Source of the DNA: Gemmatimonadota bacterium
Lineage (GTDB): Bacteria; Gemmatimonadota; Gemmatimonadetes; Palauibacterales; Palauibacteraceae
NCBI GenBank assembly: GCA_965116475.1
Contig: OZ220691.1
Location: 1,344,001-1,408,000, forward strand
Length of the DNA stretch: 64,000 bases
Direction: 5' to 3'
Below, piece after piece: positions 2,255 to 47,610 of this stretch (within the stretch, counting starts at the first letter, position 1; each line of letters begins with the position of its first letter). Under the pieces are notes generated by a model, which had not been told where the DNA came from, made no database searches, and saw nothing but the letters and a program-made list of their open reading frames with translations. Position numbers and translations under genes: made by a program.

Positions 2255-2281
2255 GGGTCGCCAACGTCCTTGGCAGCTACA

Positions 2282-5892: not shown

Positions 5893-5944
5893 GCAGCCTC
5901 TCTATCGAAGAGGATCGGGGTCAACGTGCTCACGCGTCGTGAGG

Positions 5945-7243
5945 TTACAACCAGATGAATTTCGCGGCGAACACCAGCGCCACCATGAGCAGCATGGGCG
6001 GGCACTCGCGCCACCGGCCCGCGAGCACCTTGATGGCCACATAGGTGATGAAGCCGAGTCCGATTCCATCGGCGATGGAATACGTGAGCGGGATGGCGAT
6101 CGCGGTCACCACCGCCGCGGCGGACTCCGTGATGTCGTCCCATTCCACGTCCTTCAACGCCCGAGTCATGAGGCAGGCGACGTACAGAATCGCCGCCGCG
6201 GTCGCGAACGAAGGGACGGACTCCGCCAGCGGCCGGAGAAACAGGCAGACGAGGAAGAGCCCGGCCACGACGACGGCCGTCAAGCCGGTGCGTCCGCCGG
6301 CGCTCACGCCCGCGGCGCTCTCGATGTAGCTGGTCACCGAGGAGGTCCCGAGCAGCGTGCCGGCGACGGTCCCGGTCGAATCGGCCATGAGGGCACGCTG
6401 GATGCGGGGCAGCCGCCCATCGTCATCGAGGAGGTCGGCCTGGTGCGCGACGCCGATCAGCGTGCCGGCAGTGTCGAAGAGATCGACGATGAGGAAGGTG
6501 AAGATGACCGCGATCATGCCCAGTTGCAGCGCGGCGCCGATGTCGAGCGCGAACAGCGTGGGGGTCGGATCGGGCGGCAGCGACGCGAAGCCGTGCCACT
6601 CCGACACGCCCAGAATCAGGCCGATCGCCGTCGCGCCCAGCATGCCGAGAATCGCCGCGCCGGGGATGCGCCGCGCCGAGAGCGCCGCGATCGCACAGAA
6701 ACCGAGCAGGGCGAGCACCGCCGGCGCCGCCGTCAGCTCGCCCACGGTGAGGAGCGTGGCCGGATTCCCCTCGATGATTCCCGCGTTCCGCAGCGCGATC
6801 ACCCCGAGGAAGATCCCGATGCCGGCCGAGATCGCCATCTTCTGGCCCCGCGGGATCGCGTCGATGATCCAGCGTCGGACCGGGAGCACGCTCAGCGTGA
6901 CGAACAGCGTCCCCGACAGGAACACGGCCCCGAGCGCAACCTCCCAGGGGTACCCCATGCCGAGCACGACGCCGTAGGTGAAGAAGGCGTTCAGCCCCAT
7001 CCCCGGCGCCAGCGCGATGGGGTAGTTCGCGTACAGTCCCATCACGAGCGTGGCGAAGGCCGCCGCAAGGCAGGTCGCGACGAACACCGGGCCGAACGGC
7101 ATCCCGGCCTCGGAGAGGATGGACGGATTGACGAAGGCGATGTAGACCATCGTCAGGAAGGTCGTGACCCCCGCGGTCACCTCCGTCCGCACGTCGGAGC
7201 CGCACTCCGACAACCTGAACCAGCGCTCCAGCTTCCCGGTCAT
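5945..7243 (-). CDS. NCS2/AzgA-type purine permease
   Basis: TEVTAGVTTFLTMVYI..NPSIL, APGMGLNAFF, DLFDTAGT, YIESAAG..AGGRTG, PLTYSIADG. Confidence 0.95.
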   Translation of the reverse strand: MTGKLERWFRLSECGSDVRTEVTAGVTTFLTMVYIAFVNPSILSEAGMPFGPVFVATCLAAAFATLVMGLYANYPIALAPGMGLNAFFTYGVVLGMGYPWEVALGAVFLSGTLFVTLSVLPVRRWIIDAIPRGQKMAISAGIGIFLGVIALRNAGIIEGNPATLLTVGELTAAPAVLALLGFCAIAALSARRIPGAAILGMLGATAIGLILGVSEWHGFASLPPDPTPTLFALDIGAALQLGMIAVIFTFLIVDLFDTAGTLIGVAHQADLLDDDGRLPRIQRALMADSTGTVAGTLLGTSSVTSYIESAAGVSAGGRTGLTAVVVAGLFLVCLFLRPLAESVPSFATAAAILYVACLMTRALKDVEWDDITESAAAVVTAIAIPLTYSIADGIGLGFITYVAIKVLAGRWRECPPMLLMVALVFAAKFIWL

Positions 7244-24046: not shown

Positions 24047-24075
24047 TTGTAGACTGCCGAGTGCGGCGTCATGTT
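24047..24075 (+). promoter_or_regulatory. Putative sigma70-type promoter of DMFase-like gene 2
   Basis: TTGTAG-N17-CATGTT. Confidence 0.5.
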
Positions 24076-24135
24076 GCGGGGACGCGGCGGCCGGGGGGGC
24101 CGGCCGGCGCCCGACTCTGGCCCGGAGATGTCTCC

Positions 24136-26274
24136 ATGACCGCGTCCCTGGCAACCCGTGGCAACAGCCCCGCCGCGTTCCCCACCTCCGTCGTGCTTTC
24201 GATCGCGCTCGCCGCCGCGGGCTCCGGTTGCACCCTGCAGGTCTCCGTGGGGGAAGCGTGCGCCGACCCCGCCAACGAGATCGTGGCGGAGAACTGTCTC
24301 GAGGGGCACCCGCCGACGGAGTGGGATATCAACAGCTACGGCGACCCCAGCATCCAGGGCTTCGGAACCGACATCGCGATCGCCCAGGGCGAGACGATCG
24401 AGTTCAAGATCGACACGGACTCCGACGACTACCGGATCGACATCTACCGCATGGGCTACTACGGCGGCATGGGCGCGCGCCGCGTCGATTCGTTCGAGCC
24501 GTCCGCGACACTGCCCCAGATCCAGCCCGAGTGCCTGCGGGGCCCGATCCCCGTGCTGGCCGAGGGGGGCGGGATGGAGACGTGGCCCGCACCGCTCGTC
24601 GACTGCGGCAACTGGGCGGTGTCGGCCTCCTGGCGGGCGCCGGAGGACGCGACCTCGGGCATCTACTTCGCCCGGCTCGTGCGCGAGGATCCGATCGAGG
24701 GCTGGGTGAAGAACGACCAGTTCGAGGCCACGCCCCTCCCGCCGACCGGGGAGGATTCGCTGTGGGAGGCGCCCGGCTTCCGGGCCGTGATGCGGAACGG
24801 CCTGCGCGAGCCGCGGGCCAGCCACATCTACTTCGTCGTGCGGGACGACGACGGCGAGTCCGACATGCTCTTCCAGACATCGGACCTCACCTGGCAGGCC
24901 TACAACCGCTATGGCGGCCACAGCGTATACGGCCGGCTGAATCCGGAGCGCCTCCGCCTCCACGGCGGAGAGCCGCGGGCGCCGAAAGTCAGCTACAACC
25001 GGCCGTTCGAGACGCGGCACTATCGCGCGGTCAACAAGGTGTTCAACTCCGAGTACCCGATGGTCCGCTGGCTGGAGCGCAACGGGTACGACGTCAGCTA
25101 TTCCTCGGGCATCGACACGGATCGCCGCGGCGAGGAACTGCTGGAGCACAAGGTCTTTCTCTCGGTCGGACACGACGAGTACTGGACGGGACGGCAGCGG
25201 CGGAACGTGGAAGCGGCCCGGGCCGCCGGCCTGAACCTCGCCTTCTTCAGTTCGAACGAGGTCTACTGGAAGGTGCGCTGGGAGGCGAGCATCGACGGCT
25301 CGGGCGAGCCCTACCGGACCCTCGTGACGTACAAGGACTCACAGGACCACCGGCGGCTCGACCCCGTGGAATGGACCGGCGAGTTCCGCGACCACCGTCC
25401 CATCAACGCCGAAGGGCCATGGCCGGAGAACGCGCTCACGGGGACGCTGTTCACCGTGAACGCGTGGCGGAACGACCCGATCATCGTGGACGCCGAGTTC
25501 GCCGACCTGAGGTTCTGGCGCAACACCGAGGTGGCGCGCCTCCAGCCGGGTGAGCGGTACGTGTCGATCAAGGGGATCCTCGGCCATGAATGGGACTCGG
25601 ACATCGACAACGGGTTCCGGCCGCCCGGATTGTTCCGGGTGGCCGCGACGGAGATCGACAACACGCTCTACTGCGTGCACCCGGGACGCGGCTGCGAGAC
25701 GGGCACCGCCACGCATCATGCCGTGCTGTACCGGCACGAGAGCGGCGCGCTCGTGTTCGGCTCCGGGACGCTGCAGTGGTCGTGGGGACTGGACGCGCAC
25801 CACGACACGGAGACCGGCGTGCCCCCCGAGCGGCAGAACGGCGCGGACACGCGGGTCGGCGTCGATCCGCACGGTCCCGACCTCGTCCTGCAGCAGGCGA
25901 CGCTGAACCTGTTCGCGGACATGGGCGTCCAGCCCGCCACGATGCAGCCGGATCTGGTGGCCGCCACGGCTTCGACGGATCGGGTCCCGCCCACGTCCTC
26001 CTTCGGCCCCCCCTCGGCGCCGGACGCCGAAAGCGGCAGGCTCACGATCTCGGGGACGGCGTCGGATACGGGCGGCGGCGTAGTCGCGGCGGTCGAGGTA
26101 TCACTCGATGGAGGACAGACCTGGCACCCGGCCCGCGGTCGAACGGATTGGAGCTACGAGTACGACCCCGCCGTCACCCGGGATGAGGTTTCGATCCTGA
26201 GCCGGGCCGTGGACGACAGCGGCAACATCGAGACGCCAGGCGCGACCGCCGCGGGCGGCGGCTCGGGAGACTGA
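24136..26274 (+). CDS. N,N-dimethylformamidase large-subunit-like lipoprotein (paralog 2)
   Basis: Collinear with and very similar to paralog 1; ATG 24136 follows the shared GGAGATGTC leader; lipobox GSGC. Confidence 0.85.
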   Translation: MTASLATRGNSPAAFPTSVVLSIALAAAGSGCTLQVSVGEACADPANEIVAENCLEGHPPTEWDINSYGDPSIQGFGTDIAIAQGETIEFKIDTDSDDYRIDIYRMGYYGGMGARRVDSFEPSATLPQIQPECLRGPIPVLAEGGGMETWPAPLVDCGNWAVSASWRAPEDATSGIYFARLVREDPIEGWVKNDQFEATPLPPTGEDSLWEAPGFRAVMRNGLREPRASHIYFVVRDDDGESDMLFQTSDLTWQAYNRYGGHSVYGRLNPERLRLHGGEPRAPKVSYNRPFETRHYRAVNKVFNSEYPMVRWLERNGYDVSYSSGIDTDRRGEELLEHKVFLSVGHDEYWTGRQRRNVEAARAAGLNLAFFSSNEVYWKVRWEASIDGSGEPYRTLVTYKDSQDHRRLDPVEWTGEFRDHRPINAEGPWPENALTGTLFTVNAWRNDPIIVDAEFADLRFWRNTEVARLQPGERYVSIKGILGHEWDSDIDNGFRPPGLFRVAATEIDNTLYCVHPGRGCETGTATHHAVLYRHESGALVFGSGTLQWSWGLDAHHDTETGVPPERQNGADTRVGVDPHGPDLVLQQATLNLFADMGVQPATMQPDLVAATASTDRVPPTSSFGPPSAPDAESGRLTISGTASDTGGGVVAAVEVSLDGGQTWHPARGRTDWSYEYDPAVTRDEVSILSRAVDDSGNIETPGATAAGGGSGD

Positions 26275-34648: not shown

Positions 34649-35425
34649 CTATTTCCCCACGGACAGGAAATCCCGCAGCCGGAGTTTCGTCTGGTGGTCC
34701 TGCATGCGCACGCCACGCATGTTCTGGCCGCGAATGTAGGTCCGCTGCCAGCCCTGTTGAACCGCCTCCTCCTCCTGGGCGTGGAGGTCGTCGATGAACT
34801 GGGCCCGGGACTCGTTCCATGCCGTGTACTGTTTCGCGACGAGCTTGTCGTCCCACAACTCCCGGGTGCGTGGGCGCACGTTCTCGAGATAGTGCCGCGG
34901 CATGGGGATGATCCGGCAGATGGGTTCCCCTTCGTCGAAGCGGATCCAGTGCTTGGGCCGGGTGACCTTCCAGTTCATCGTGAACGAGAACGGGGCCCAG
35001 TCGGTCTCGATGATCCCGTCGAGCGGGACGATGCCGTCCTTGGGAAGGTTGGGGCAGCCTCGCGCCCAGAGGTTGTGACCCTTCGTGGTGCGGAACAGGT
35101 AGCCGGGCGTGAACGTCAGGACTCCGCTCCCGAAATGGCTCGCGATGGCGGGGTGCGGCTCATCCTCCCAGCGAAACCGGATGGAGTCCAACCCCACGCC
35201 GCCGTCCCAGCGCAGCCAGAACTTCGTGGGGCAGAGCAGATCCCAGCCGGCCTGGTTCGCGATGAGGAGCGGCAGGCAGCGGTAGGCGAAGCGGTCGGGC
35301 GTTTCGTCCATCCACTCGCGGCGCTGTTCGCCGATCGCGATCTCGAGGGCGGTCTCGGCGACCCGGAACGCCGTCAGTTCGATGCCGCGCGCGGTCTGGG
35401 GCCGCGCCTTGGCCTTCTTCGCCAC
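34649..35425 (-). CDS. DUF6065-like protein
   Basis: [61 protein letters not shown]. Confidence 0.75.
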
Positions 35426-35440
35426 GGGGAGCCGTTCGCC

Positions 35441-35992
35441 CTACCGGGCCGCCGAGACCCGGTTCGCCGGCCCGCCTCCGCCTCCGCCCTCGGAGGATTC
35501 GACGAGCGACTTGCCGAGATCCAGCGGCACCAGCCGGCCACCGATCTCCGCGACGCCCTGTATGCGGACCCAGCGGTCGAGAAGCGTGACCTGCAGCACG
35601 GTCTCGAACGCGTCGGTCGTTGCGCCGGGGTCGATTTTCATCGTGATCCTTCGCGCGGCGACATCGTACTCCCACGACCCGTAGAGCCGGGTTTCCAGCG
35701 TCGTACCGCCCGGCCCGAGTCCGGTCAGCGTGATCCGTGAACTCAGGTTCTGGATCGACCCGAAGACGAGACGGACATCGGAGCCGGGGGGGAGGGGCTG
35801 GAAGTCGTCGGGAAGATGCGGCACCTGGCGCCTGAGGAGCTCCAGCGGCCGATAGGCGCCCACGATGGTGTGATGGACGGTCCGGTACGCGGGCCCGTAC
35901 GGGTTGTTGTCCAGTTCGCACGCCGCCATGCCGCCGGCGAGGGTGGCGACGGTGGCCGCGCACGCGATGTTCCGGACCCGCGGGGATCTCAT
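35441..35992 (-). CDS. Hypothetical lipoprotein
   Basis: ATG 35992 after GGAGG; lipobox MAAC; no family recognised. Confidence 0.6.
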   Translation of the reverse strand: MRSPRVRNIACAATVATLAGGMAACELDNNPYGPAYRTVHHTIVGAYRPLELLRRQVPHLPDDFQPLPPGSDVRLVFGSIQNLSSRITLTGLGPGGTTLETRLYGSWEYDVAARRITMKIDPGATTDAFETVLQVTLLDRWVRIQGVAEIGGRLVPLDLGKSLVESSEGGGGGGPANRVSAAR

Positions 35993-36242
35993 GAACCCTC
36001 CAGCACTGGTTTCGACCGGTATGCCGCACCCCCCGGGCGCGGCCAAGCCGGCCGGGGAGCGCTCTGAATAAGAAACCCTCCAGCGTCGCGCGGGCAACCC
36101 GGCGTCTGCACGTCACGCGCCTCTCCACTCCCGCCGATCGAGGCCCGGACCGTCAGGCGTTGCGCGGGATGACTCCGGTTGACAGGGTCTTGGCGAGGTC
36201 AACCGCGCCCCGACTCGATACTCGAACCCGGTTCGTTGAGAC

Positions 36243-37484
36243 ATGCTCACGATACGCCCCATCCGCCGCGCGCTCGTGCCCGTCGATTCCGCGGCCGCGC
36301 GCCGCGTCTCCGCGCTCAACTACGACGAGTTTCAAGGGGACCACGAGATCTGGGAGGCCATTCGGGACGCGCCGGATTCGGTGCTGAACGTCACCATGGC
36401 GCACTGCGCCGTGGCGAGCCCGGATCGGATCCTGAGGGGAGACTCGGCGGAGTCGCTCGCGCGGGCGCGCCGCAACTTCGAGCGCCTGCACGCCTCCCCG
36501 CTTACGCAGGAAGTGAAGACGACCCTGTACATCTACGAGATCGTGGATCCGCAGCGCCCCGGCGTCCGCCAGATCGGCCTGGGCGGGTTGGCGCGCACGG
36601 ATGAGATTCGGACAGACGACACGCCGGAGGGACCGATCATCCGGAACGAAGGGGTCCGCCCGCCCAAGGCCAGGGGACGCGCCCGACTCATCGAAGCGAC
36701 GGGCGCGATCATCGGGACCGTGAACAACGCGGTGCCGGACGAGTCCGGGGCGTTCGCGGCGGCGCTCGAGCGCCACGCCGACGCGACCCCACCGGACTTC
36801 GAGGCCGGGGGCTCGGGAGGCACGACCCATCGCATCTGGCTCGTTGCGGAGCCGGGGGCCATCGCGCGCCTCCAGCGACTGCTGGCGATGGAGCCCGAGG
36901 CGTACGTCGCCGATGGCAACCACCGGAGCGCGGCCGCCGCAATGCTGGGACGCGAGTCTTTTCTCGCCGTGTTCTTTCCGGCGGACCGGATGGGAATCTC
37001 GCCCTACAACCGGCTGGTCCGGCTTCCCGGCGAACGCGACGCGACCGCCGTTGACGCGGCGCTGGAGCGCTCATTCGAAGTGTCGGCCGCCGGGGAAGAG
37101 GCTCTTCAGCCGTGCGAGACCCACGAGATCGGGGTCTATGCCGCCGGGCGCGGCTGGCGGCGCGCCTTGCCGCGGGCCGGCGTCTACGACGAGGCGGACG
37201 CCGCTGCCTCCATCGACCACGATATCGTGCAGCGAACGCTGCTGGCCGATCTGGGCATCGCCGACGCGGCGGACGACCGGCTGACGTTCGTGGGCGCGAA
37301 CAGGGATGCCGCGTGGCTCGCGGCCGAGGTGGACGGGGGTCGGGCGGACCTTGCCGTCACCCTGCCGGCCGTGACGATGCGTCAGTTCGTCGCGGTGTGC
37401 CGGCAGCGGCGGATGATGCCCCCCAAGTCGACCTGGTTCGAGCCCAAGATCCGCAGCGGACTCGTCATGGCGCATCTCGACTAG
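36243..37484 (+). CDS. DUF1015 family protein
   Basis: IRPIRRA..SALNYD, IIRNE, HRIW, YVADGNHRSAAA, PYNRLV, MPPKSTWFEPKIRSGL. Confidence 0.88.
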   Translation: MLTIRPIRRALVPVDSAAARRVSALNYDEFQGDHEIWEAIRDAPDSVLNVTMAHCAVASPDRILRGDSAESLARARRNFERLHASPLTQEVKTTLYIYEIVDPQRPGVRQIGLGGLARTDEIRTDDTPEGPIIRNEGVRPPKARGRARLIEATGAIIGTVNNAVPDESGAFAAALERHADATPPDFEAGGSGGTTHRIWLVAEPGAIARLQRLLAMEPEAYVADGNHRSAAAAMLGRESFLAVFFPADRMGISPYNRLVRLPGERDATAVDAALERSFEVSAAGEEALQPCETHEIGVYAAGRGWRRALPRAGVYDEADAAASIDHDIVQRTLLADLGIADAADDRLTFVGANRDAAWLAAEVDGGRADLAVTLPAVTMRQFVAVCRQRRMMPPKSTWFEPKIRSGLVMAHLD

Positions 37485-39111
37485 CACTCGCTTGCGTTTG
37501 CCGCCGGGAGAGGTCGCGAAGCGCGGTGCGGTCGACCTTACCCAGGTGCGTCCTGGGCAGGTCCTCCGCGACGTGAACGGCGGCGGGCGTCTTGTACGAG
37601 GACAGCCGCGAAGCGACGAATTCCCTCAGTTCCGGTGCAAGCTCGCCGGCTCGCGCGACGGCCGGTTCGGTCGGGACGACCCAGGCGACCGGCTCTACGA
37701 GACCTTCGGGCGTCGGCACCCCGACGACGGCGGCCTCCGCCACCGCGGCGTGCCGAAGCAGGCAGTCCTCCACCTCGCCGGGCGACAGCCATTTCCCCTT
37801 GACCTTGAGCATGTCGTCGCCGCGCCCGCAGTAGCGGAAGACGCCCCGTTCGTCGCGAACGACCATGTCGCCGGATACGTACCATTCGCCCTGGAACGCC
37901 TCCGCCGTCGCTGTCGCCCGCTGCCAGTACCCCAGCGCCCGCGACCCCCCGCGGACCCGGAGCCAGCCCACTTCACCGTCCGGAAGCTCTCGACCCTCGT
38001 CGTCGCAGACCCGCACCTCGAACCCCGGCACCGCGCGCCCCAGCGTTCCCGGATGCACCTCGTCGGGGCGGTTGCTCAGAAAGATGTGCCACATCTCCGC
38101 CGTCCCGAGGCCGTCCAGCAGCGTCACCCCCCAGCGGTCGCGCCAGCGCCGGTGAAGTTCGGGCGGGAGCGCCTCACCCGCCGAGGTCGCCAGGCGAAGG
38201 CTCGAGAGGTCGCTCGCACCGGCGTCCGGGTGCGCCACCATGTGGCGGATCATGGTGGGGACGTTGACGAGCACCGTGGGGCGGAAGCGCGCGATCATCC
38301 CGAACAGGACATCCGGACTGCAGCGCTCCGGGAAGAGGGCCGCGGTCGCGCCGACCGAGAAGGGGAAGAAGAGGTTGGATCCGGTGGCGTAGCCGAAGAA
38401 CAGCTTGGGGACCGAGAGCGTGACGTCGTCCTCCGTCAGGCCCAGCACCCGCTTGCCGTAACATTCCGTCGTGTTGGCGAACGAGGCGTGCGTCTGCACG
38501 ACGCCTTTCGGGCGGCCGGTCGTCCCGCCGCTGAACAGCCACAGGGCGGGGTCGTCCCGGTGAGTCGGATACGGTTGCAGCGTCGCGGGCTGGGCGCGCA
38601 GCCGCTCCGCGAAGGCGGGGTCGTCCACGACGAAGGTCTTGCGCGGCGCGGAAGTACCTTCGCGCCATGGGATTCCGGCTTCATGAACCGTTCCGGATGT
38701 CGGCGCCGCGGGCATCGCCTCGCGAAAGAAGGGCGCACGGCGGGAGTCCACGAGAAGGACGGCGCCGCGCGTGTAACGGAAGAAGTACGATATCTCGTCG
38801 CGCCGGAGATACGGGTTCAGCATGACGCCGACGGCGCCGATGCGGAGCGTGCCGAAGAGGGCGGCGACGAAGTCCGGTCCATCCGGGAGCGCGATGAGGA
38901 CCCGCTCCTCCGGTCGCACGCCCGCGCCGCGCAGGAGATGGCCGTAGCGGTTCGCCAGCGCCTCGACCTCCGCGTAGGTCTTCTCGCCGGCGGCCGTGAG
39001 GAGCGCGCGCCGGCCACCCCGCCCTTCCCGGATGCGGTCGCCCAGGAAGTACTCGGCAATGTTGAAGCGCTCGGGCGGATCGAAGATCGGCTGGGGCGTG
39101 GCGTCTCGCAT
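37465..39111 (-). CDS. Benzoate/2-aminobenzoate-CoA ligase family protein
   Basis: LFSGGTTGRPKG, PKLFFGYATG, SAGEALP, DGLGTAEMWHIFLSN, GRGDDMLKV, LPRTHLGK; divergent from the abm-like operon. Confidence 0.9.
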   Translation of the reverse strand: MRDATPQPIFDPPERFNIAEYFLGDRIREGRGGRRALLTAAGEKTYAEVEALANRYGHLLRGAGVRPEERVLIALPDGPDFVAALFGTLRIGAVGVMLNPYLRRDEISYFFRYTRGAVLLVDSRRAPFFREAMPAAPTSGTVHEAGIPWREGTSAPRKTFVVDDPAFAERLRAQPATLQPYPTHRDDPALWLFSGGTTGRPKGVVQTHASFANTTECYGKRVLGLTEDDVTLSVPKLFFGYATGSNLFFPFSVGATAALFPERCSPDVLFGMIARFRPTVLVNVPTMIRHMVAHPDAGASDLSSLRLATSAGEALPPELHRRWRDRWGVTLLDGLGTAEMWHIFLSNRPDEVHPGTLGRAVPGFEVRVCDDEGRELPDGEVGWLRVRGGSRALGYWQRATATAEAFQGEWYVSGDMVVRDERGVFRYCGRGDDMLKVKGKWLSPGEVEDCLLRHAAVAEAAVVGVPTPEGLVEPVAWVVPTEPAVARAGELAPELREFVASRLSSYKTPAAVHVAEDLPRTHLGKVDRTALRDLSRRQTQASASRDAP

Positions 39112-39273
39112 CGGGCTCCATCGGGCTCCATCGGCGCGGCCGTCCGGTCCGTCCGCGGTCCGCCGCGGTGTCTCGAAGAACCGGCCTCGCACGGTATGCG
39201 CGGCCCGGCGCGTCTACAACCGACCCGGCCCGCCGGACTTGCGCCCTTCCCCGGCACGGCGTAGCGAGACTCC

Positions 39274-40038
39274 ATGACTCTGCACAGGCTTTCGGACCTC
39301 ACCTGGGAGGAGGTCGGGGCGCTCGACCTCGATCGAACGGTGGCGATCCTGCCCGTGGGAGCGACCGAAGCGCACGGCCCCCACCTGCCTCTCGACACCG
39401 ATGTCACCATCGCGGAAGCGATGGCGGAAGCCGGCGCGCGACGACTCTCGGCGCTCGGTCTGGAGGTCGTGGTCCTCGACGGCCTCCGGTACACGCCCGC
39501 CGCGTTCTCCGCGAGCTTCCCCGGCACGATCGATATCGGGGCCGCGACGCTCACCGCCCTGCTCGTCGACATCGCCGCCAGCCTGCGCCGGGCCGGGATC
39601 GCGACCCTGGCGATCGCGAACGCGCACTTCGACCCCGCCAACCTCGAGGCCCTTCACGCCGCCGCCACGGCGGCCGGCGGAGGTGACTCCATGCGCATCG
39701 TGTTTCCCGATGTCACGCGGCGGCCGTGGGGAAGCCGGCTCACCGAGGAGTTCCGGAGCGGCGCCTGCCATGCCGGGCGGTACGAGGGTTCGATCATCCT
39801 GGCCCGTGATCCCGGACGCGTGCGCGAGGAGATCATGCGCCAACTGGAGGACAATCCGGTCTCGCTCTCCGCCGCGATCCGGGCTGGAGTGGAAGACTTC
39901 GCGGAAGCGGGGGGCACGCAGGCCTATTTCGGCTACCCGTCGCAGGCGACGGCGGAAGAGGGACGTGCTACCATTGAGACGCTCGGCGACATCCTCGCCG
40001 CGGCGGTGAGCGAAGCCCTGGGAGAGGAGAAAGAGTGA
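39274..40038 (+). CDS. Creatininase-family amidohydrolase
   Basis: TWEEV, LPVGATEAHGPHLPLDTD, FPGTI, NAH, HAGRYEGS, GYP..ATAEEG. Confidence 0.9.
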   Translation: MTLHRLSDLTWEEVGALDLDRTVAILPVGATEAHGPHLPLDTDVTIAEAMAEAGARRLSALGLEVVVLDGLRYTPAAFSASFPGTIDIGAATLTALLVDIAASLRRAGIATLAIANAHFDPANLEALHAAATAAGGGDSMRIVFPDVTRRPWGSRLTEEFRSGACHAGRYEGSIILARDPGRVREEIMRQLEDNPVSLSAAIRAGVEDFAEAGGTQAYFGYPSQATAEEGRATIETLGDILAAAVSEALGEEKE

Positions 40039-40817
40039 GTCTTGCCGGACGTGGCGCGCTCGTCACGGGCGGGGGGCGCGGCATCGGAGCCGCCGCGGCG
40101 CGGACGCTGGCCGTCCGGGGCGTCCGGCTGGTCCTGGCGGCGCGGAGCACGCCGGAGATCGAGGCCATCGCGGCCGAGCTGCGGGGCCGGGGGGGCGAGG
40201 CGTGGCCGGTGACGTGTGACGTGTCGGACCCGGCGAGTGTGGAGGCTCTATGCCGCGAGGCCGGGAGTCGGCTCGGCACCGTGGACATCCTCGTGAACAA
40301 TGCCGGCGTGGCCAGTTCGGCCCCGGTCGCGAAGCTCGCGCTCGAGGAGTGGGAACGGCTGTGGCGCATCAACGCGACCGGCTCGCTCCTCGCGATGCAG
40401 GGCGTGATGCCGGCCATGGTGGAACGCGGCTGGGGCCGGATCGTGAACGTCGCCTCCGTCGCCGCGCTGCGGGGAGGGCGCTACATGGCGGGCTACGCCG
40501 CGTCGAAGCATGCCCTGCTCGGGCTCACGCGCTCCGCCGCGGCCGAAGTGGCCGGCGCCGGGGTCACGGTGAACGCGGTCTGTCCCGGCTACGTCGACAC
40601 CCCGATGACGGATGCCACGATCGAGAACATCGTGAAGCGAACGGACATGGAGGAGACCGACGCCCTCGACGCGATTCTTGCGACGACACCGCAGCGGCGG
40701 CTCATCGCCCCCGGGGAGGTCGCGGCGTCGATCGCGTTCCTGTGCGAAGATGACGCGCGGAGCATCAACGGCCAGACCGTCGTGCTGGACGGCGGCGCCA
40801 CGGCGGCGCTCCCGTGA
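40035..40817 (+). CDS. SDR oxidoreductase (3-hydroxyacyl-CoA dehydrogenase-like)
   Basis: TGGGRGIG, NNAG, YAASK, NAVCPGYVDT. Confidence 0.93.
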   Translation: MSLAGRGALVTGGGRGIGAAAARTLAVRGVRLVLAARSTPEIEAIAAELRGRGGEAWPVTCDVSDPASVEALCREAGSRLGTVDILVNNAGVASSAPVAKLALEEWERLWRINATGSLLAMQGVMPAMVERGWGRIVNVASVAALRGGRYMAGYAASKHALLGLTRSAAAEVAGAGVTVNAVCPGYVDTPMTDATIENIVKRTDMEETDALDAILATTPQRRLIAPGEVAASIAFLCEDDARSINGQTVVLDGGATAALP

Positions 40818-41221
40818 CCGACGCGTTCGAGGTGCTGAACCCGGCCGCGCTCGGCGAGCCGCGGGGCTGGAACCACGGCCTCCTCGCACCGCCCGGCGGG
40901 CGCGTGCTGTTCGTCGCCGGACAGACCGCGGCCGGATCGGACGGAGGCGTCGAGACGCCCGACTTCGCCGCCCAGTTCGCGCTCGCGCTCGATCGCGTGC
41001 TGGCGGTCGTGCGGGCGGCGGGCGGAGAGCCCTCGCACATCGGACGGATAACCATCTACGTGACGGATCTCGCCGCCTACCGGGACGCCCGTTCCGAGCT
41101 GGGGGCGGCGTGGCGCGCCCGACTGGGCCGGCACTACCCGGCCATGGCGCTCGTCGAGGTCAGCGGGCTCGTCGATGCCGGCGCGCAGGTCGAGATCGAA
41201 GCGACCGCCGTCCTGCCGTGA
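40814..41221 (+). CDS. RidA/YjgF family protein
   Basis: LFVAGQ, HYPAMALVEVSGL..VEIEATA. Confidence 0.92.
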   Translation: MTDAFEVLNPAALGEPRGWNHGLLAPPGGRVLFVAGQTAAGSDGGVETPDFAAQFALALDRVLAVVRAAGGEPSHIGRITIYVTDLAAYRDARSELGAAWRARLGRHYPAMALVEVSGLVDAGAQVEIEATAVLP

Positions 41222-41252: not shown

Positions 41253-42053
41253 GTGCCTCTGAACCCGAGTTCGTTTCTGTACGAGGTCGATGCCGCGACA
41301 TCCGTCGCGACGATCACGCTGAACCGTCCGGAACGGCGCAATGCGCTGACCTTCGAGGTTTACGACGAACTCCGCCACACGTTCCGCGCGCTCGACCGCG
41401 AGCCCGGGGTGCGCGCGGTCGTGATCACCGGGGCCGGCGCCGCCTTCTGCACGGGCGGAGACGTGCGCGACATCATCGGACCGCTCCTCGAGATGGACGC
41501 CGCGGAATTGCTCGAATTCACGCGCATGACGTGTGACCTGATCGCCGCCATGCGGGAGTGCGGCCGGCCCGTCGTCGGCGCCCTGAACGGCACGGTGGCG
41601 GGGGCCGGGGCCGTGATCGCGACCGCCTGCGATGTGCGGATCGCGGCGGAATCCGCGAAGATCGCCTACCTGTTCACGCGGGTCGGGCTTTCCGGCGCCG
41701 ACATGGGGATCGCCTGGCTCCTGCCGCGAATCATCGGTCTCGGACGGGCGACGGAGCTGCTGATGACGGGCGATTTTCTCGACGCACGGGAGGCGCTCCG
41801 CGTCGGACTGTACAATCGGATCGTGCCCGATGGCGAGGCGCTCGCCGCCGGGACGGAGTGGGCGGCGCGGCTGGCGGCGGGACCCTCCGCCGCGCTGGCC
41901 GTCACCAAGCGCGCCCTGGAGAAAGAGGCACACATGACGTTGCGCGACGCGCTCGACGAGGAGGCCCGCCTGCAGGCCGCCTGCATGGAGGACCCGAACT
42001 TCCGCGAGGGCTTCCGCGCCTTCGTCGAGAAGCGGGCCGCGGTGTTCTCGTGA
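41253..42053 (+). CDS. Enoyl-CoA hydratase/isomerase family protein
   Basis: ITLNRPERRNAL, AFCTGGDV, AGAG, RVGLSGADMG; GTG start. Confidence 0.92.
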   Translation: MPLNPSSFLYEVDAATSVATITLNRPERRNALTFEVYDELRHTFRALDREPGVRAVVITGAGAAFCTGGDVRDIIGPLLEMDAAELLEFTRMTCDLIAAMRECGRPVVGALNGTVAGAGAVIATACDVRIAAESAKIAYLFTRVGLSGADMGIAWLLPRIIGLGRATELLMTGDFLDAREALRVGLYNRIVPDGEALAAGTEWAARLAAGPSAALAVTKRALEKEAHMTLRDALDEEARLQAACMEDPNFREGFRAFVEKRAAVFS

Positions 42054-43210
42054 TCGACCTCCACCCCGTCCGCGCCTTTCTCGAGCCGCGGCACCTCGAA
42101 CTCGGGGAGGGGCTTGGAAACTATGCAGCGGCCGAGTTCGCCGAACACGCGCATCGGGACGATGATGATCTCGCCCGCCGCTACGCCCGGGAGATCTGCG
42201 CATCCCTGGGGCGGGGCGGCTGGCTGAAGGCGGTCGCCCGACAGGACTTCCGGGCCTGTTCCGTGACGCGCGAGACGCTGGCCTTCTACTCGCCGCTCGC
42301 CGACGCGATGTTCGCGCTCCAGGCGCTGGGCTCGACCCCGATCGCGCTGGCCGGCGACGAGAGGCAGCGGCGGCTGTGGCTCGACCGCGCCATCCGCGGG
42401 CGGGCCGTGGCCGCCTTCGCGATGAGCGAGCCGGAGGCGGGGTCCGACGTCGCCGCCATGCGCACGACCGCCGTCCGGGACGGAAACGACTACGTCCTCA
42501 ACGGCGTGAAGACCTTCATCTCGAACGCGGGGATCGCGGACTTCTATCTCCTGTTCGCGGTCACCGACCCGGGCGAGGGCGTGGCGGGGATCTCCGCCTT
42601 CCTCCTCCCGGCCGATACGAAGGGGTTCCGCTTCGTGCGGCCGCTGCTGATGGCCGACCCCCACCCGCTGGGCGAGATCGCGCTCGAGGACTGCCGGCTG
42701 CCGGCCACGGCCCGCGTCGGAGGCGAGGGCCAAGGGTACAAGCTCGGGCTCGCGACGCTCGACCGCCTGCGCCCCACCGTCGGCGCAGCGGCCTGCGGGA
42801 TGGCGGGCCGCGCGCTGCACGAGGCGCTCCACCACGCCCTGACGCGCCGGCAGTTCGGGCGGGCGCTGGCCGATTTCCAGATCACGCAGGAGAAGGTGGG
42901 ACGCATGGGCACGGACCTCACCGCCGCCCGGCTCCTCGTGTACCGGGCGGCCTGGGAGCGCGACGGCGGCGCGGACCGGACGGACCTCGAAGCCGCCATG
43001 GCAAAGTCCTTCGCAACCGAAATCGCGCAGGGCGTGGTGGACGACGCCGTGCAGATCCTCGGCGGACGGGGCGTGCTGGCGGACCACCCGGTCGACCGGC
43101 TCTACCGTTCCGTGAGGGCCCTCCGCATCTACGAGGGCGCCACCGAGATTCAGCGTCTCATCATCGCGCGTCATCTGCTCGACGCCGCGCGCGGCGAGAG
43201 CGACCTCTGA
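42050..43210 (+). CDS. Acyl-CoA dehydrogenase
   Basis: FAMSEPEAGSD, LNGVKTFISN, RRQFG, QILGG.G, RIYEGATEIQ; GTGA overlap with the upstream gene. Confidence 0.93.
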   Translation: MIDLHPVRAFLEPRHLELGEGLGNYAAAEFAEHAHRDDDDLARRYAREICASLGRGGWLKAVARQDFRACSVTRETLAFYSPLADAMFALQALGSTPIALAGDERQRRLWLDRAIRGRAVAAFAMSEPEAGSDVAAMRTTAVRDGNDYVLNGVKTFISNAGIADFYLLFAVTDPGEGVAGISAFLLPADTKGFRFVRPLLMADPHPLGEIALEDCRLPATARVGGEGQGYKLGLATLDRLRPTVGAAACGMAGRALHEALHHALTRRQFGRALADFQITQEKVGRMGTDLTAARLLVYRAAWERDGGADRTDLEAAMAKSFATEIAQGVVDDAVQILGGRGVLADHPVDRLYRSVRALRIYEGATEIQRLIIARHLLDAARGESDL

Positions 43211-45528
43211 GGATCGTCTGCGTCGGAGGCGGGCCGGCCGGCCTGTACTTCGCGATCCTGATGAAGCGCTCGGATCCGGCGCACGAAGTCATCGTCCTCG
43301 AACGCAACCGCCCCGGCGACACCTACGGCTTCGGCGTCGTGTTCTCCGACGCCACGCTGGAGGAACTCGCCGCCGCGGACCCCGAGAGTTACGAGGCGAT
43401 CGTGCGGTCCTTCCACCACTGGGACGACATCGACATCCACTACCGGGGCCACCGGCTCACGTCGACCGGACACGGTTTCAGCGGCCTCGCGCGCACGGCC
43501 CTCCTCGAGATCCTCGAGTCGCGGGCGCGCGGACTCGGCGTCGACCTGCGGTGCGGCGTGGAAGTCGAGTCGGAAGACGCCTACGCCGGCGCCGATCTCG
43601 TCCTCGCCGCCGATGGCGTGAACAGCGGCCTGCGGGACCGATACGCCGCCGCGTTCGGCCCGCGCGTCGATCTTCGTCCGAACCGCTTCGTGTGGCTCGG
43701 CACGACCAAGCCCTTCCCCGCCTTCACGTTTTATTTTTGGGAGACCGAACACGGCCTGTGGCGCGTGCACGCGTATCAGTACAGGCCCGGCGACGGGCGC
43801 GGCGGCAGGCCCGGCGTCAGGCGCGGCGGCAGGCCCGGCGGCGCAGGGGGGGACGCCATCTCCACCTTCATCGTCGAGGCCACCGAGGCGACGTGGCGCG
43901 CCGCCGGCATGGACGCCGCCTCCGAGGAGGAGACCGTCGCCTTCCTCGAGGATACGTTCCGCGACGAACTGGGCTCCCATCGACTCGTCGCGAACCGCTC
44001 CATCTGGCGTGGCTTCCCGACCGTCCGGAACCGGTCGTGGCGCCACGGCAACATCGTGCTCGTCGGCGACGCGGCGCACTCGGCCCACTTCTCCATCGGG
44101 TCGGGCACCCGGCTCGCGATGATCGACGCGATCTCGCTGCACGAATCGCTCCTCGCCCACGATCTCGCGGTGGCGCCCGCCTTGGAGGCCTACGAGACGG
44201 CCCGCCGGCCCGAGGTCGAGAGCGTGCAGAGGGCGGCCCAGGCGAGCCTCGAATGGTTCGAGGGCACCGAGCGTTTCCTGGAGACGGAACCCCTGCAGTT
44301 CGCCTTCAACCTCATCACGCGCAGCCTCCGCATCACGCACTCCAACCTCGCCCTGCGCGACCCCGGGTTTACCGCGCGCGTCGACCGCTGGTTCGCGGAA
44401 CGGGCCGCAGTGGGCGCCGTCGCGGGCGGCCCGGCACCGCCTCCACTCCTCGCCCCGTTCCGGCTCCGGGAACTCGAGTTGAAGAACCGGGTCGTCGTCT
44501 CGGCCATGTGCCAGTACTCCGCGGAGGACGGGACGCCGGACGACTGGCACCTGGTGAACCTCGGCAGCCGCGCGATCGGGGGGGCCGGCCTCGTGATGTC
44601 GGAGATGACGGACGTGAGCCGGGAGGGCCGTATCTCACTGGGCTGCACCGGAATGTACGCTCCCGCCCACGTCGGGGCCTGGAAGCGCATCGTCGATTTC
44701 GTGCACCGCCATTCCGACGCGGCGATCGGCGTGCAGCTCGGGCACGCGGGCCGGAAGGCTTCCACCCATCTCTCCTGGGAGGGCGACAACGAACCGCTGG
44801 AGGAGGGCGGCTGGCCGATCATGGCCGCTTCCCCCGTGCCGTGGTTCGAACACAGCCCGGTGCCGCGCGAGATGACGCGGCGGGACATGGATCGGGTGAC
44901 GGCCGAGTTCCGCCGCGCGGCGGAAATGTCGGAGGAAGCCGGGTTCGACCTGCTGGAGATCCACTTCGCGCACGGCTACCTGCTGGCCAGCTTCATCTCG
45001 CCCCTCACGAACCTCCGCGAGGATGAGTACGGGGGAGACGTGGACGGACGGCTGCGCTTCCCGCTCGAGGTGCTCGCGGCGGTGCGATCGGCGTGGCCGC
45101 CGGAAAAGCCGATTTCAGTCCGGATCTCCGCGGTGGACTGGGCGGAGGGCGGGATGACCGCGGACGGCGCCGTCGAGATTGCGCACCGCCTGAAGGAGGC
45201 GGGCGTGGACATCATCGACGTCTCGGCGGGGCAGACCGTCCCCTGGCAGGAGCCGGTCTACGGCCGCCAGTACCAGACGCCCTTCTCGGACCGCATCCGG
45301 CACGAGGCGGGGATCGCCACCATGGCCGTGGGCAACATTTCCTCCTTCATGGACGTGAACACGATCCTCGCGGCGGGGCGCGCGGACCTCTGCTGTCTCG
45401 CCCGCGCGCACCTCTGGGACCCATACTGGACCCGGCACGCCGCCTACGCTTCGGGGGCGCCGATCCCCTGGCCGCCGCAGTATTCGTCGCTGGACGGCTA
45501 CACGCCGAGATTCGAGTGGGGGTACTGA
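43207..45528 (+). CDS. abmA: Anthraniloyl-CoA monooxygenase/reductase (bifunctional flavin monooxygenase + OYE domain)
   Basis: RIVCVGGGPAGLYF, FGVVFSD, ADGVNS, GDAAHSAHFSIGSGT; OYE domain NRVVVSAMCQYS, QLGHAGRK, HFAHGYL. Apparent CTG start. Confidence 0.92.
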   Translation: MRIVCVGGGPAGLYFAILMKRSDPAHEVIVLERNRPGDTYGFGVVFSDATLEELAAADPESYEAIVRSFHHWDDIDIHYRGHRLTSTGHGFSGLARTALLEILESRARGLGVDLRCGVEVESEDAYAGADLVLAADGVNSGLRDRYAAAFGPRVDLRPNRFVWLGTTKPFPAFTFYFWETEHGLWRVHAYQYRPGDGRGGRPGVRRGGRPGGAGGDAISTFIVEATEATWRAAGMDAASEEETVAFLEDTFRDELGSHRLVANRSIWRGFPTVRNRSWRHGNIVLVGDAAHSAHFSIGSGTRLAMIDAISLHESLLAHDLAVAPALEAYETARRPEVESVQRAAQASLEWFEGTERFLETEPLQFAFNLITRSLRITHSNLALRDPGFTARVDRWFAERAAVGAVAGGPAPPPLLAPFRLRELELKNRVVVSAMCQYSAEDGTPDDWHLVNLGSRAIGGAGLVMSEMTDVSREGRISLGCTGMYAPAHVGAWKRIVDFVHRHSDAAIGVQLGHAGRKASTHLSWEGDNEPLEEGGWPIMAASPVPWFEHSPVPREMTRRDMDRVTAEFRRAAEMSEEAGFDLLEIHFAHGYLLASFISPLTNLREDEYGGDVDGRLRFPLEVLAAVRSAWPPEKPISVRISAVDWAEGGMTADGAVEIAHRLKEAGVDIIDVSAGQTVPWQEPVYGRQYQTPFSDRIRHEAGIATMAVGNISSFMDVNTILAAGRADLCCLARAHLWDPYWTRHAAYASGAPIPWPPQYSSLDGYTPRFEWGY

Positions 45529-45586: not shown

Positions 45587-46390
45587 ATGGCGCACGGAAA
45601 ATACCTGACCTACGCCGGATACCTGCACCTCGACGAGTTGCTGTCGCTCCAGGTGGAGCAGTCGGGCGAGGGCGGCGACCCCGAGCACGATGAGATGCTG
45701 TTCATCATCATCCACCAGGTGTACGAGCTGTGGTTCAAGCAGCTCCTGCACGAACTCGCATTCGCGCGCGACCGGATGGGGGCGGACGACATGCCGCGGC
45801 TCCTGCACACGATGGAACGCATCCTCGCGATCCTGAAGGTGCAGGTCGCGCAGCTGGACATCCTGGAGACGATGCGTCCGCTGGAGTTCCTCGCCTTCCG
45901 CCAGCGGCTGGAGGAGGCGAGCGGCCTGCAGTCGTACCAGTTCCGCGAGCTCGAGTTCATTCTCGGCCACAAGCGGAGGGACGTATTCGACCGCTACCCG
46001 GAGGGAAGCGACGCGCGCCGGCGGCTCGACGCCCGCTACGGGGAACCGTCGCTGTGGGCCGCCTTCCTTCGGTTTCTGCACGCGCGCGGGTACGCGATCC
46101 CGGCGGAGGACCTGGAGCGGGACGTCACGGCGCCGACCGAGCCCTCGGCGGGCGTGCGGGCCGCCCTCATCCGGCTCTACCGGGAGGATCCGCAACTCGT
46201 CCAGCTGTGCGAGCGGTTGGTGGACCTCGACGAGGGACTCCAGGAATGGCGCTACCGGCACGTGAAGATGGTGGAGCGCACGATCGGGGCGCGGCCCGGC
46301 ACCGGCCAGACGGGGGGCGCCGCCTACCTGAGGAAGTCGCTGAACCACCCGGTGTTTCCCGACCTGTGGGCGATCCGCACCGACCTGTGA
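45587..46390 (+). CDS. kynA: Tryptophan 2,3-dioxygenase
   Basis: YLHLDELLSLQ, HDEMLFIIIHQVYELWFK, ASGLQSYQFRELEF, WRYRH..VERTIG..GTG.TGG..YL, FPDLW. Confidence 0.96.
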   Translation: MAHGKYLTYAGYLHLDELLSLQVEQSGEGGDPEHDEMLFIIIHQVYELWFKQLLHELAFARDRMGADDMPRLLHTMERILAILKVQVAQLDILETMRPLEFLAFRQRLEEASGLQSYQFRELEFILGHKRRDVFDRYPEGSDARRRLDARYGEPSLWAAFLRFLHARGYAIPAEDLERDVTAPTEPSAGVRAALIRLYREDPQLVQLCERLVDLDEGLQEWRYRHVKMVERTIGARPGTGQTGGAAYLRKSLNHPVFPDLWAIRTDL

Positions 46391-47610
46391 CCGGACACCG
46401 CACCAGCCTGGCGCCGGAGGATCTCTACCGGGAGCCGAACGCGCTGGCCCCGGACTACTCCCGCTTCCGGGTCGCGGAGCGGCTGCTCCTCACGGGACAT
46501 TCGCACCAGGCGTGGCCCGACTGCGGGTTCGCGGGACAGCGCCGGGCCTGGGAGGACGCCGCCCGCCTGGTGGATGGGAAGTGGGAGGAGGCGTTCGCCC
46601 GCGGGAATCGGGTCCGCGCCGGGTACGCCGAACTCCTCGGACGCCCGGGGCGCCCGGACGAAGGGGACTACGCGCTGGGTTCGAACACGCACGAACTCGT
46701 GGTCCGCTTCCTCTCCGCCCTGCCCCTGCGCGCGCGACCCCGGCTCGTGACGACCGCAGGGGAGTTCCACTCCATTCGGCGCCAGCTCGACCGCCTGGAG
46801 GAGGAGGGGCTGGCCGTCGTTCGCGTGCCCGTGGAGCCGATCGATTCCCTCTCCGAGCGGCTCGGCCTCGCGACGGACGACGCGACGGCGGCCGTGCTCG
46901 TCTCCGCCGTCCTCTACCGCGACGCCCGTATCGTCGCTGGGCTCGACCGCGTGGCGGAGCGCTGCGAACGGGTGGGGTGCCACCTGCTCGTGGACGCCTA
47001 CCACGCGCTGAACGCGATCCCCTTCGACCTCTCGAGCCTTGGGCTCGAAGGCGCGTTCGTGGTGGGGGGCGGCTACAAGTACTGCCAGCTCGGCGAGGGG
47101 AACTGCTTCCTTCGGGTCCCGCCGGACTGCCGGCTGCGCCCCGCCGTCACGGGTTGGTTCGCGGAGTTCTCGGCGCTGCACGGGGGGAAGGACGAGCGGC
47201 GGGTGCAGTACGGACCGGGAGCGGAGCGATTCGCGGGCAGCACGTACGATCCGACGAGCCACTACCGGGCGGCCGAGGTGTTCGACTTCTTCCGGGAGCG
47301 GGGCCTCGCGCCGGAGTTGCTGCGCGCGGTGAGCCGGCACCAGGTGGACCGTCTCGCGCGGGGGTTCGACGGACTCGACGCGGACCCGGAACTCGTGGAC
47401 CGCGACCGGGAGACGCCGCTCGAGGCCGTGGGCGGCTTCCTCGCGCTCCGGACGCCGCGGGCGCGGGACTTCCACGAGGCGCTCGTGGCTCGTGGCGTGG
47501 CGACGGACTACCGCGACGACCTGCTGCGGCTGGGTCCCGCCCCCTATCTCAGCGACCGGCAGCTGGACGACGCGGTCGCCGCCCTCGGAGAGGTGGCGGC
47601 CGGGTTCTAG
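46387..47610 (+). CDS. kynU: Kynureninase-like PLP enzyme (divergent)
   Basis: GEFHS, VDAYH, GGYKY (PLP Lys), PAVTGWF, RF.GST, TDYR..LRLGP.PY; GTGA-coupled to kynA. Confidence 0.82.
   Translation: MTGHRTSLAPEDLYREPNALAPDYSRFRVAERLLLTGHSHQAWPDCGFAGQRRAWEDAARLVDGKWEEAFARGNRVRAGYAELLGRPGRPDEGDYALGSNTHELVVRFLSALPLRARPRLVTTAGEFHSIRRQLDRLEEEGLAVVRVPVEPIDSLSERLGLATDDATAAVLVSAVLYRDARIVAGLDRVAERCERVGCHLLVDAYHALNAIPFDLSSLGLEGAFVVGGGYKYCQLGEGNCFLRVPPDCRLRPAVTGWFAEFSALHGGKDERRVQYGPGAERFAGSTYDPTSHYRAAEVFDFFRERGLAPELLRAVSRHQVDRLARGFDGLDADPELVDRDRETPLEAVGGFLALRTPRARDFHEALVARGVATDYRDDLLRLGPAPYLSDRQLDDAVAALGEVAAGF

Follow-up and report, generated by a model that had tools for sequence, protein, structure and literature searches.

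Which enzyme removes the formyl group left by tryptophan 2,3-dioxygenase (KynA) when an operon for tryptophan breakdown encodes no familiar kynurenine formamidase? This question is raised by a 64,000-nucleotide stretch of a Gemmatimonadota bacterium (assembly GCA_965116475.1, contig OZ220691.1, positions 1,344,001 to 1,408,000; hereafter the window), with a G+C content of ~70% and proteins whose closest relatives belong to Candidatus Palauibacter and other Gemmatimonadota. The window holds an operon that unites tryptophan cleavage and the coenzyme A (CoA)-dependent aerobic anthranilate route in one transcription unit. Its first gene, at 39274..40038 on the forward strand, encodes a creatininase-family metal amidohydrolase, here called P0001, that we propose as a deformylase of N-formylkynurenine or N-formylanthranilate. 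This reading is plausible and partly supported: the computational checks all agree with it, and several independent comparisons favor it. P0001 is the best candidate for the operon's missing formyl-removing step. That it acts on one of these two substrates, bridging KynA and the operon's CoA ligase, is a proposition that the sequence evidence leaves evenly poised.

The gene begins with ATG and encodes 254 residues. Its G+C content by codon position (0.73/0.53/0.84) matches a ~70% G+C genome, which marks the open reading frame (ORF) as a real gene, and the start is sound, because the N terminus aligns from residue 1 in 37 orthologues. P0001 matches PF02633 (Creatininase) and no other Pfam family (E 6.3e-52, 176.8 bits against a cut-off of 31.3), with residues 8-244 spanning profile positions 2-237 of 238 (236 positions), and a search of the ESM Atlas confirmed the family assignment. 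Among 8000 candidates scored, 5087 proteins were homologous at E<=0.001; the top homologues are 92-58% identical and, where named, come from Ca. Palauibacter or Gemmatimonadota. A plasmid collection yielded no close homologue: all 366 records fall below 60% identity, the best being the mycofactocin protein MftE at 36.7%, so the subfamily has no annotated cultured-organism context in that collection.

An AlphaFold2 model of P0001 (predicted local distance difference test score 93.1, predicted template modeling score 0.92) gave 26 Foldseek matches at E<=0.001, all creatininase chains except for two creatininase-family proteins from structural genomics. Template modeling (TM) scores were 0.69-0.75 among the matches listed and ~0.74, at ~23% identity, against creatininase. 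We are confident from this predicted structure that P0001 adopts the creatininase fold. When a profile of the 37 orthologues was aligned to Pseudomonas creatininase, P0001 residues E32, H34, D43, H118, D120, H166, and E171 fell on its metal and catalytic positions, which we take to be the binuclear metal ligands and catalytic histidine E34, H36, D45, H120, E122, H178, and E183. All seven P0001 residues are invariant across the orthologues, with D120 replacing the glutamate at the E122 position of creatininase. The catalytic apparatus is thus predicted from the alignment to be intact.

The earlier note on this DNA had pointed to NAHFD where NGHGGN is usual and had suggested a distinct subfamily; the motif is real, and the suggestion is supported. 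Residues 113-122 of P0001 read IANAHFDPAN; where P0001 has NAHFDPAN, an alignment shows NGHGGN in annotated MftE and NGHYEN in Pseudomonas creatininase. The motif is not peculiar to P0001 but is the rule across a large subfamily. In 91 full-length proteins, each representing a 50%-identity cluster and sharing 32-61% identity with P0001, the dominant form is N-x-H-[LF]-[DE]-P, accompanied by a CHAG or xHAG block; this second block within PF02633 reads G-A-C-H-A-G-(R/Q)-Y-E, that is, ACHAG(R/Q)YE. At E<=1e-30 the subfamily has 129 representatives, hosted by Gemmatimonadota, Acidobacteriota, Eisenbacteria, Myxococcota, and Planctomycetota. The sharing of the motif by distant members supports a separate subfamily, as do scores below equivalog cut-offs: P0001 is a member neither of TIGR04448 (creatininase proper, EC 3.5.2.10; 89.6 bits, cut-off 235) nor of TIGR03964 (MftE; 112.2 bits, cut-off 172), and it matches NF041098 (IolN, 3-dehydro-scyllo-inosose hydrolase; cut-off 245) at 32.8 bits over the N-terminal 110 residues only. 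No ArfB or BrbF model appeared among its NCBIfam matches at E<=1e-5, a library that may hold none. P0001 also has a 12-residue loop, TRRPWGSRLTEE, that is absent from MftE and whose P, W, R, L, and E (five positions) are invariant in the orthologues; it could plausibly serve as a substrate lid. A second creatininase-family gene in locus L017 (9736-10548, reverse strand), convergent to kynU and with a hydrophobic N terminus, was set aside as a distant paralogue (~30% identity over 120 residues) that belongs to a different subfamily.

What does the operon itself encode? The earlier note had placed the creatininase-family gene at its head, and seven genes do follow, starting with an overlapping stop and start; its list of kynA, kynU, CoA ligase, abmA, and beta-oxidation genes was likewise confirmed with Pfam and NCBIfam, kynU being a divergent one. 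The P0001 stop codon overlaps the GTG start of a short-chain dehydrogenase/reductase (SDR) gene (40035..40817; adh_short, 206.9 bits), which is followed by a gene for a RidA/YjgF-family protein (40814..41221; Ribonuc_L-PSP, 62.2 bits), likely an enamine/imine deaminase of the 2-aminobenzoyl-CoA branch. Next come an enoyl-CoA hydratase family protein (ECH; 41253..42053; ECH_1, 187.3 bits; NF006107, 360.6 bits, cut-off 330), whose ORF is open from 41175 with a likely GTG start at 41253 preceded by GGAAGGAAG, and an acyl-CoA dehydrogenase (ACAD; 42050..43210; Acyl-CoA_dh_1 and M domains; open from the GTG at 42050). The fifth gene (43207..45528) encodes an AbmA-like bifunctional FAD monooxygenase and old yellow enzyme (OYE)-type reductase (FAD_binding_3 and Oxidored_FMN; NF006101, 1086.2 bits, cut-off 1078), of the type that acts on 2-aminobenzoyl-CoA or salicylyl-CoA; it is 42-54% identical to plasmid-borne proteins annotated as salicylyl-CoA 5-hydroxylase/oxidoreductase, and one Ralstonia record calls its homologue anthraniloyl-CoA monooxygenase. 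All seven genes lie on the forward strand, and the last two encode the tryptophan enzymes.

KynA (45587..46390; Trp_dioxygenase, 210.1 bits, well over the Pfam cut-off) is 40% identical to Bacillus KynA and scores 272.6 bits against TIGR03036, under the cut-off of 390.7. The final gene (46387..47610) encodes a divergent kynureninase-like pyridoxal phosphate enzyme (KynU-like; KYNU_C, 31.2 bits) that is ~25% identical to Bacillus and Azospirillum KynU and has kynureninase 1qz9 as its top PDB match (E 1.6e-10). In NCBIfam it matches cysteine-desulfurase models weakly (E 5e-4 to 8e-3) and kynureninase models not at all; its many close homologues carry the JGI name kynureninase. Such proteins (P0272-P0390) form a large divergent subfamily that is widespread in Gemmatimonadales, Ignavibacteriales, and Arenicellales and may act on kynurenine or on N-formylkynurenine. 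On the reverse strand, divergent from the operon, lies the gene for an aryl-CoA ligase of the benzoate-CoA ligase family (37465..39192; AMP-binding, 263.7 bits; TIGR02262, 480.4 bits, cut-off 375.25), and the 81-bp region between them (39193..39273) is presumably a control region shared by ligase and operon.

Is another formamidase encoded nearby? The earlier note had seen neither a KynB nor an alpha/beta-hydrolase formamidase in the cluster, and a window ORF scan together with six-frame tblastn found none either. No cyclase-family KynB occurs among the window ORFs picked by third-codon-position G+C content (GC3). To extend the comparison we used a one-genome-per-species scan, which gave 571 confirmed P0001 relatives, and analyzed the best 80 loci, mostly from Gemmatimonadota, plus Eisenbacteria, Acidobacteriota, Planctomycetota, and Myxococcota; complete Ca. 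Palauibacter chromosomes, such as NZ_OZ253465.1 and NZ_OZ244907.1, were among the genomes hit by the scan. The 80 loci contained 392 GC3-supported ORFs not explained by the window cluster genes. The 292 of these with 110-480 residues entered a Pfam scan, which excluded 100 shorter or longer ORFs, 20 long ones being scanned separately. The KynB domain PF04199 was found in none of the 292 scanned ORFs from the 80 loci. Alpha/beta hydrolases were scattered (L009, L049, L064, and L078), with none conserved, and the 20 ORFs above 480 residues included no amidase or formamidase, several being OYE-like reductases, protein kinases, or glucose-6-phosphate dehydrogenase.

For tblastn we took KynB from a Bacillus kynU-kynB-kynA cluster (TIGR03035, 324 bits) and kyn-adjacent alpha/beta hydrolases from Azospirillum, Haladaptatus, and Arthrobacter. 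The three hydrolases share no BLASTP similarity at 1e-3 and are therefore unusable as one family probe. At E<=1 over the window and 87 loci, the Bacillus KynB and Azospirillum hydrolase queries matched only the locus from which the query came and, in L083, a remnant of KynB; at E<=1e-3 over the window and 80 loci, the Haladaptatus and Arthrobacter queries found nothing. The remnant, in a Paraburkholderia plasmid control (4705-4839), is a 45-residue stretch 60% identical to the KynB C terminus and lies just upstream of kynA, which is followed there by aminotransferase and RidA genes in place of kynU.

Clusters seeded on AbmA rather than on P0001 provide a control. Plasmid or chromid records with a full-length match to the AbmA-like protein (41-54% identity) number 239, and from these nine loci of different genera (Ralstonia, Burkholderia, Phyllobacterium, Streptantibioticus, Aminobacter, Haladaptatus, Natronococcus, Arthrobacter, and Paracoccus) were searched with all window cluster proteins. 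At E<=1e-3 none of the nine has a creatininase homologue. RidA is present in all nine (38-43% identical to that of the window), the ligase in eight (32-36%), SDR in seven (35-50%), and ECH and ACAD in seven each; tryptophan 2,3-dioxygenase is present in none and canonical kynU in four. Because these loci keep SDR, RidA, hydratase, and dehydrogenase without a creatininase homologue, the CoA branch exists without a P0001-type gene. The creatininase-family gene appears in the cluster version that also gained KynA and the KynU-like enzyme.

The same controls bear on the idea that P0001 replaces the acyl-CoA thioesterase of proteobacterial and actinobacterial abm-like clusters, or has an unrelated housekeeping role. 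A thioesterase is annotated in five of the eight annotated controls (Ralstonia, Burkholderia, Aminobacter, Paracoccus, and Arthrobacter), and Pfam and NCBIfam found none in the window operon. The Phyllobacterium and haloarchaeal clusters, however, lack an annotated thioesterase and a creatininase homologue alike, and we know of no thioesterase activity in the creatininase family. We consider such a role highly improbable.

The most telling control records are the composite clusters on plasmids of Haladaptatus and Natronococcus (L092 9387-25939 and L093 8082-26130), the archaeal counterpart of the window operon, which combine ligase, LLM oxidoreductase, AbmA-like protein, RidA, ACAD, MaoC, SDR, ECH, trpB, kynU, and an alpha/beta hydrolase. 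The hydrolase adjoins kynU, and the Haladaptatus and Natronococcus versions share 65% identity; next to that of Haladaptatus stands a gene for indoleamine 2,3-dioxygenase. Gene orders elsewhere are kynU-kynA-alpha/beta hydrolase in Azospirillum and kynU-kynB-kynA in Bacillus. A hydrolase slot beside kyn genes that is filled by unrelated families looks like non-orthologous displacement of a formamidase. In Aminobacter, where kynU lies 7 kb away, the AbmA-like gene is directly preceded by a 'cysteine hydrolase family' (isochorismatase-like) gene (L091 13280-13828), possibly another occupant of this slot.

How closely does the creatininase-family gene travel with each part of the operon? When the window proteins were mapped onto the best 80 loci, the ligase gene proved its most constant neighbor, adjacent and divergent in 57 of the 65 loci with at least 1.8 kb upstream, and SDR lay immediately downstream in 58 of 72. 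Full flanks, meaning 8 kb or more upstream and 9 kb or more downstream, were available for 31 loci, and among these we counted the ligase in 28, RidA in 28, SDR in 27, ECH in 27, ACAD in 26, AbmA in 25, and kynA/kynU in 25. AbmA and a kyn gene occur together in 23 of the 31; L075 and L078 have AbmA without kyn, L079 and L028 have kyn without AbmA, and L058, L065, L076, and L011 have neither.

The loci in which the cluster is split point both ways. The upper module alone is present in L033 (ligase, creatininase-family gene, kynA, and kynU, then a transposase) and in L013 (kynA, kynU, ligase, and creatininase-family gene, then a protein kinase), and the rest of either contig holds no SDR, RidA, ECH, ACAD, or AbmA. 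L011, L032, L065, and L060 carry the creatininase-family gene and ligase with no downstream genes, L011 and L032 adding a weak KynU-like gene (in L011 38% identical and directly alongside). Of the loci with neither AbmA nor kyn, L065 and L011 have only the ligase, and L058 and L076 have downstream-pathway genes. In L028 the creatininase-family gene, SDR, and RidA stay together.

The tight pairing with the ligase also accommodates a broader aryl-amide amidase that would supply the ligase with a free aromatic acid cut from another N-acyl or amide precursor, such as N-acetylanthranilate or anthranilamide, and would not be tied to tryptophan. The ligase linkage is the tightest of all (the 57 of 65 and 28 of 31 loci above), the two genes stand as a lone pair in L065 and L060 and with only the weak KynU-like gene added in L011 and L032, and quinaldine degraders free anthranilate from an N-acyl precursor according to one report (PMC3534580). 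Such an amidase nevertheless has to be reconciled with the presence of kynA/kynU in 25 of the 31 full-flank loci and with a window operon in which Pfam and NCBIfam reveal no other amide-generating gene, and we regard it as improbable.

Several observations weigh against deformylation as the role of P0001. The curated models nearest to P0001 are MftE and creatininase, each under its cut-off. The absence of KynB is established at the level of the locus, for the window and 80 loci, rather than genome-wide. Six of the 31 full-flank loci have no kyn gene within 10 kb (at a 45% identity floor), and the AbmA linkage, at 25 of 31, equals the kyn linkage, so linkage alone cannot separate the tryptophan module from the CoA module in this group. 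In the Aminobacter and Arthrobacter controls kynU lies close to the abm genes, and nothing beside it is an obvious formamidase, so a cluster need not encode the deformylation step. Further counterevidence comes from longer proteins containing the creatininase domain of the subfamily, for which a search gave 20 matches. The domain is fused to SDR in nine protein clusters, typically 512-533 residues long, and to RidA in three (P0125, P0395, and P0399) through long low-complexity linkers. The SDR fusions, most of which have real linkers, fall into at least three sequence groups, and the linkers vary in length and composition; one additional case, P0392, looks frameshifted. The SDR and RidA fusions look genuine and recurrent at the sequence level, and since SDR and RidA are CoA-branch proteins that are kept in clusters without a creatininase gene, they fit a role later in the pathway at least as well as a formamidase. 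A KynU fusion is also known: in P0235 an N-terminal domain of the subfamily (NNHLEP, ACHAGRYETS) is joined to a C-terminal KynU 58% identical to the window KynU-like protein, but this fusion is a singleton from one contig. A further single-member protein, P0302 (664 residues), joins tryptophan 2,3-dioxygenase to a KynU-like enzyme.

These fusions suggest an alternative in which P0001 belongs to the 2-aminobenzoyl-CoA branch and works with SDR and RidA, or opens a lactam or ring intermediate downstream; we think this unlikely, though deserving of serious attention. In keeping with it are the position of SDR immediately after the creatininase-family gene, the loci in which downstream genes are present and kyn genes are missing within 10 kb (L075, L078, L058, and L076), and the cohesion of the gene with SDR and RidA in L028. 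IolN, the family member to which P0001 has its weak match, is a hydrolase of ring C-C bonds. The steps after AbmA are described only as beta-oxidation-like in PMC4539516, and cyclohexanedione-carboxyl-CoA was observed in Arthrobacter according to PMC3534580. Against this alternative, none of the nine AbmA-seeded clusters has a creatininase homologue though they keep RidA, SDR, ECH, and ACAD, and L033, L013, L011, L032, L065, and L060 have the ligase, with or without kyn genes, and no downstream genes in the available flank. Fused operon neighbors, moreover, need not catalyze consecutive steps. A relative of one control organism grows on anthranilate by the abm route, as stated in PMC3534580. 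In its most specific form, P0001 would be no formamidase but a metal-dependent hydrolase of a new kind, which would attack an enaminone or lactam that is bound to CoA and arises after AbmA, in physical association with SDR and RidA; this, too, appears from sequence to be an outside prospect of some weight, and if true, hydrolysis of a CoA intermediate would be a reaction type new to the creatininase family.

The related loci show three further features. In six of them a protein of 483-540 residues, of which only the C-terminal half matches OYE/Oxidored_FMN, directly follows ACAD. It precedes AbmA in L055 (13911-15389), L077 (13809-15431), and L075 (13236-14687) and is also found in L074 (4211-5665), L076 (17501-18955), and L079 (16732-18186); AbmA was not found in the flanks of L076 and L079. 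Possibly this protein serves the pathway as a variant reductase. In Eisenbacteria loci a Ser/Thr protein kinase of ~880 residues with PD40 beta-propeller repeats separates kynA from kynU (L012 10746-13406, L029 17025-19673, and L061 16974-19625), and in L013 such a kinase (4396-7035) stands just after the creatininase-family gene. A gene for a beta-eliminating lyase (tryptophanase-like) adjoins kynU in two Gemmatimonadota loci (L049 8868-11229 and L059 20058-20720), followed in L049 by an alpha/beta hydrolase gene.

On our reading the operon's route would run as follows. KynA would open the indole ring, leaving the formyl group; on the way from tryptophan to the ring-opened CoA esters (pathway outlined in PMC4539516), no ordinary amide bond arises other than the formamide made by KynA. 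P0001, as a binuclear-metal amidohydrolase, would remove the formyl group from N-formyl-L-kynurenine before the KynU-like step or from N-formylanthranilate after it; the second substrate is considered because the ligase pairing is very tight and KynU is unusual. Formate would be released, and anthranilate would then reach the divergently encoded aryl-CoA ligase, after which the AbmA-like enzyme, RidA, SDR, hydratase, and dehydrogenase would degrade 2-aminobenzoyl-CoA. We infer the substrate of P0001, its order relative to the KynU-like enzyme, and its metal.

Kynurenine formamidase activity is already supplied by unrelated enzymes: bacteria use KynB of the cyclase type, and eukaryotes use alpha/beta hydrolases. 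If our reading is true, a creatininase-fold formamidase would be a third type and a further clean case of non-orthologous displacement. It would also assign a role to a large subfamily that has no name, and many metagenome-assembled genomes would have their 'creatinine amidohydrolase' annotations corrected. The reaction is known and the type of enzyme would be new, so the finding would be of moderate rather than startling significance. The operon also offers a compact system for working out the poorly defined steps after AbmA.

Other parts of the window stand apart from this cluster. Upstream of the ligase gene (34649-37484) lie a DUF6065 gene, an ORF of 218 residues without assignment, and a DUF1015 gene; they are kept only in the closest relatives (L002-L007, with DUF1015 in 8 of 80 loci) and thus fall outside the conserved cluster. 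Tandem paralogues at 21904-24006 and 24061-26274 carry DMFA2_C, the C-terminal domain of the N,N-dimethylformamidase beta subunit (318 and 330 bits), together with Ig-like domains; they sit beside phosphodiesterase-like genes and an SNF-family transporter gene and are unrelated to the operon. At 896-2239 is a DUF222 and HNH endonuclease gene of a common Actinobacteria type, adjoining a region of lower G+C content (2001-4000, 64%).

How, finally, does P0001 compare with known systems? In the literature searched, which included few subscription journals, the creatininase family was not linked to kynurenine or anthranilate metabolism, nor did writings on kynB or a missing formamidase mention a creatininase-type formamidase. 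Within its own family, P0001 has PF02633, the fold (TM ~0.74), and the seven metal and catalytic positions in common with Pseudomonas putida creatininase (PDB 1j2t/1q3k/3a6x series). It differs in being only ~23% identical, in having NAHFDP where creatininase has NGHYEN, and in its context of tryptophan and anthranilate catabolism rather than creatine or sarcosine. MftE (mycofactocin peptidyl-dipeptidase, TIGR03964) is the nearest curated model, and an annotated Tsukamurella MftE is 37% identical to P0001 over 248 columns. MftE differs in having NGHGGN and no TRRPWGSRLTEE loop, and Pfam and NCBIfam identify none of the window genes as a mycofactocin gene (mftA-D, F).

A chemical precedent is BrbF of Sinorhizobium meliloti (SMc02977), first annotated as creatininase. 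In vitro it liberates formate from a formylaminopyrimidine nucleotide, and riboflavin synthesis requires it, as reported in PMC9478397. The same text states that BrbF shares no sequence similarity with ArfB, the archaeal formamide hydrolase of riboflavin biosynthesis. BrbF is thus a proven formamidase that performs the kind of reaction proposed for P0001, on a pyrimidine nucleotide and in a riboflavin context, whereas neither the operon nor the window assignments include riboflavin (rib) genes. Distant P0001 homologues bear the JGI name 'creatinine amidohydrolase/Fe(II)-dependent formamide hydrolase-like', and this family name is the sole support here for the placement of archaeal ArfB in the creatininase superfamily.

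Outside the family, P0001 would be an analogue of KynB and not a member of its family. The two share the proposed reaction and a position beside kynA and kynU, whereas fold and family are unrelated, P0001 matching PF02633 alone and not PF04199 or TIGR03035. The Bacillus KynB of the kynU-kynB-kynA cluster contains HxGTHxDxPxH, presumably the cyclase-family motif. A further common feature is a binuclear metal site, reported for KynB in PMC4243253 and predicted for P0001. The kyn-linked alpha/beta hydrolases of Azospirillum, Haladaptatus, and Natronococcus occupy the same slot, by kynU and a dioxygenase gene, and are serine hydrolases of an unrelated fold. Eukaryotic kynurenine formamidases of the Afmid/Bna7 type are alpha/beta hydrolases, and we infer from position that the kyn-linked proteins are formamidases as well. 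The abm clusters of Azoarcus evansii and Arthrobacter sp. Rue61a, as described in PMC4539516 and PMC3534580, share the ligase, AbmA, and beta-oxidation-like genes with the window operon, the steps of 2-aminobenzoate degradation after AbmA being given there (PMC4539516) only as beta-oxidation-like. Compared with these clusters, the window operon has a different type of ligase and adds KynA, the KynU-like enzyme, and the creatininase-family gene.

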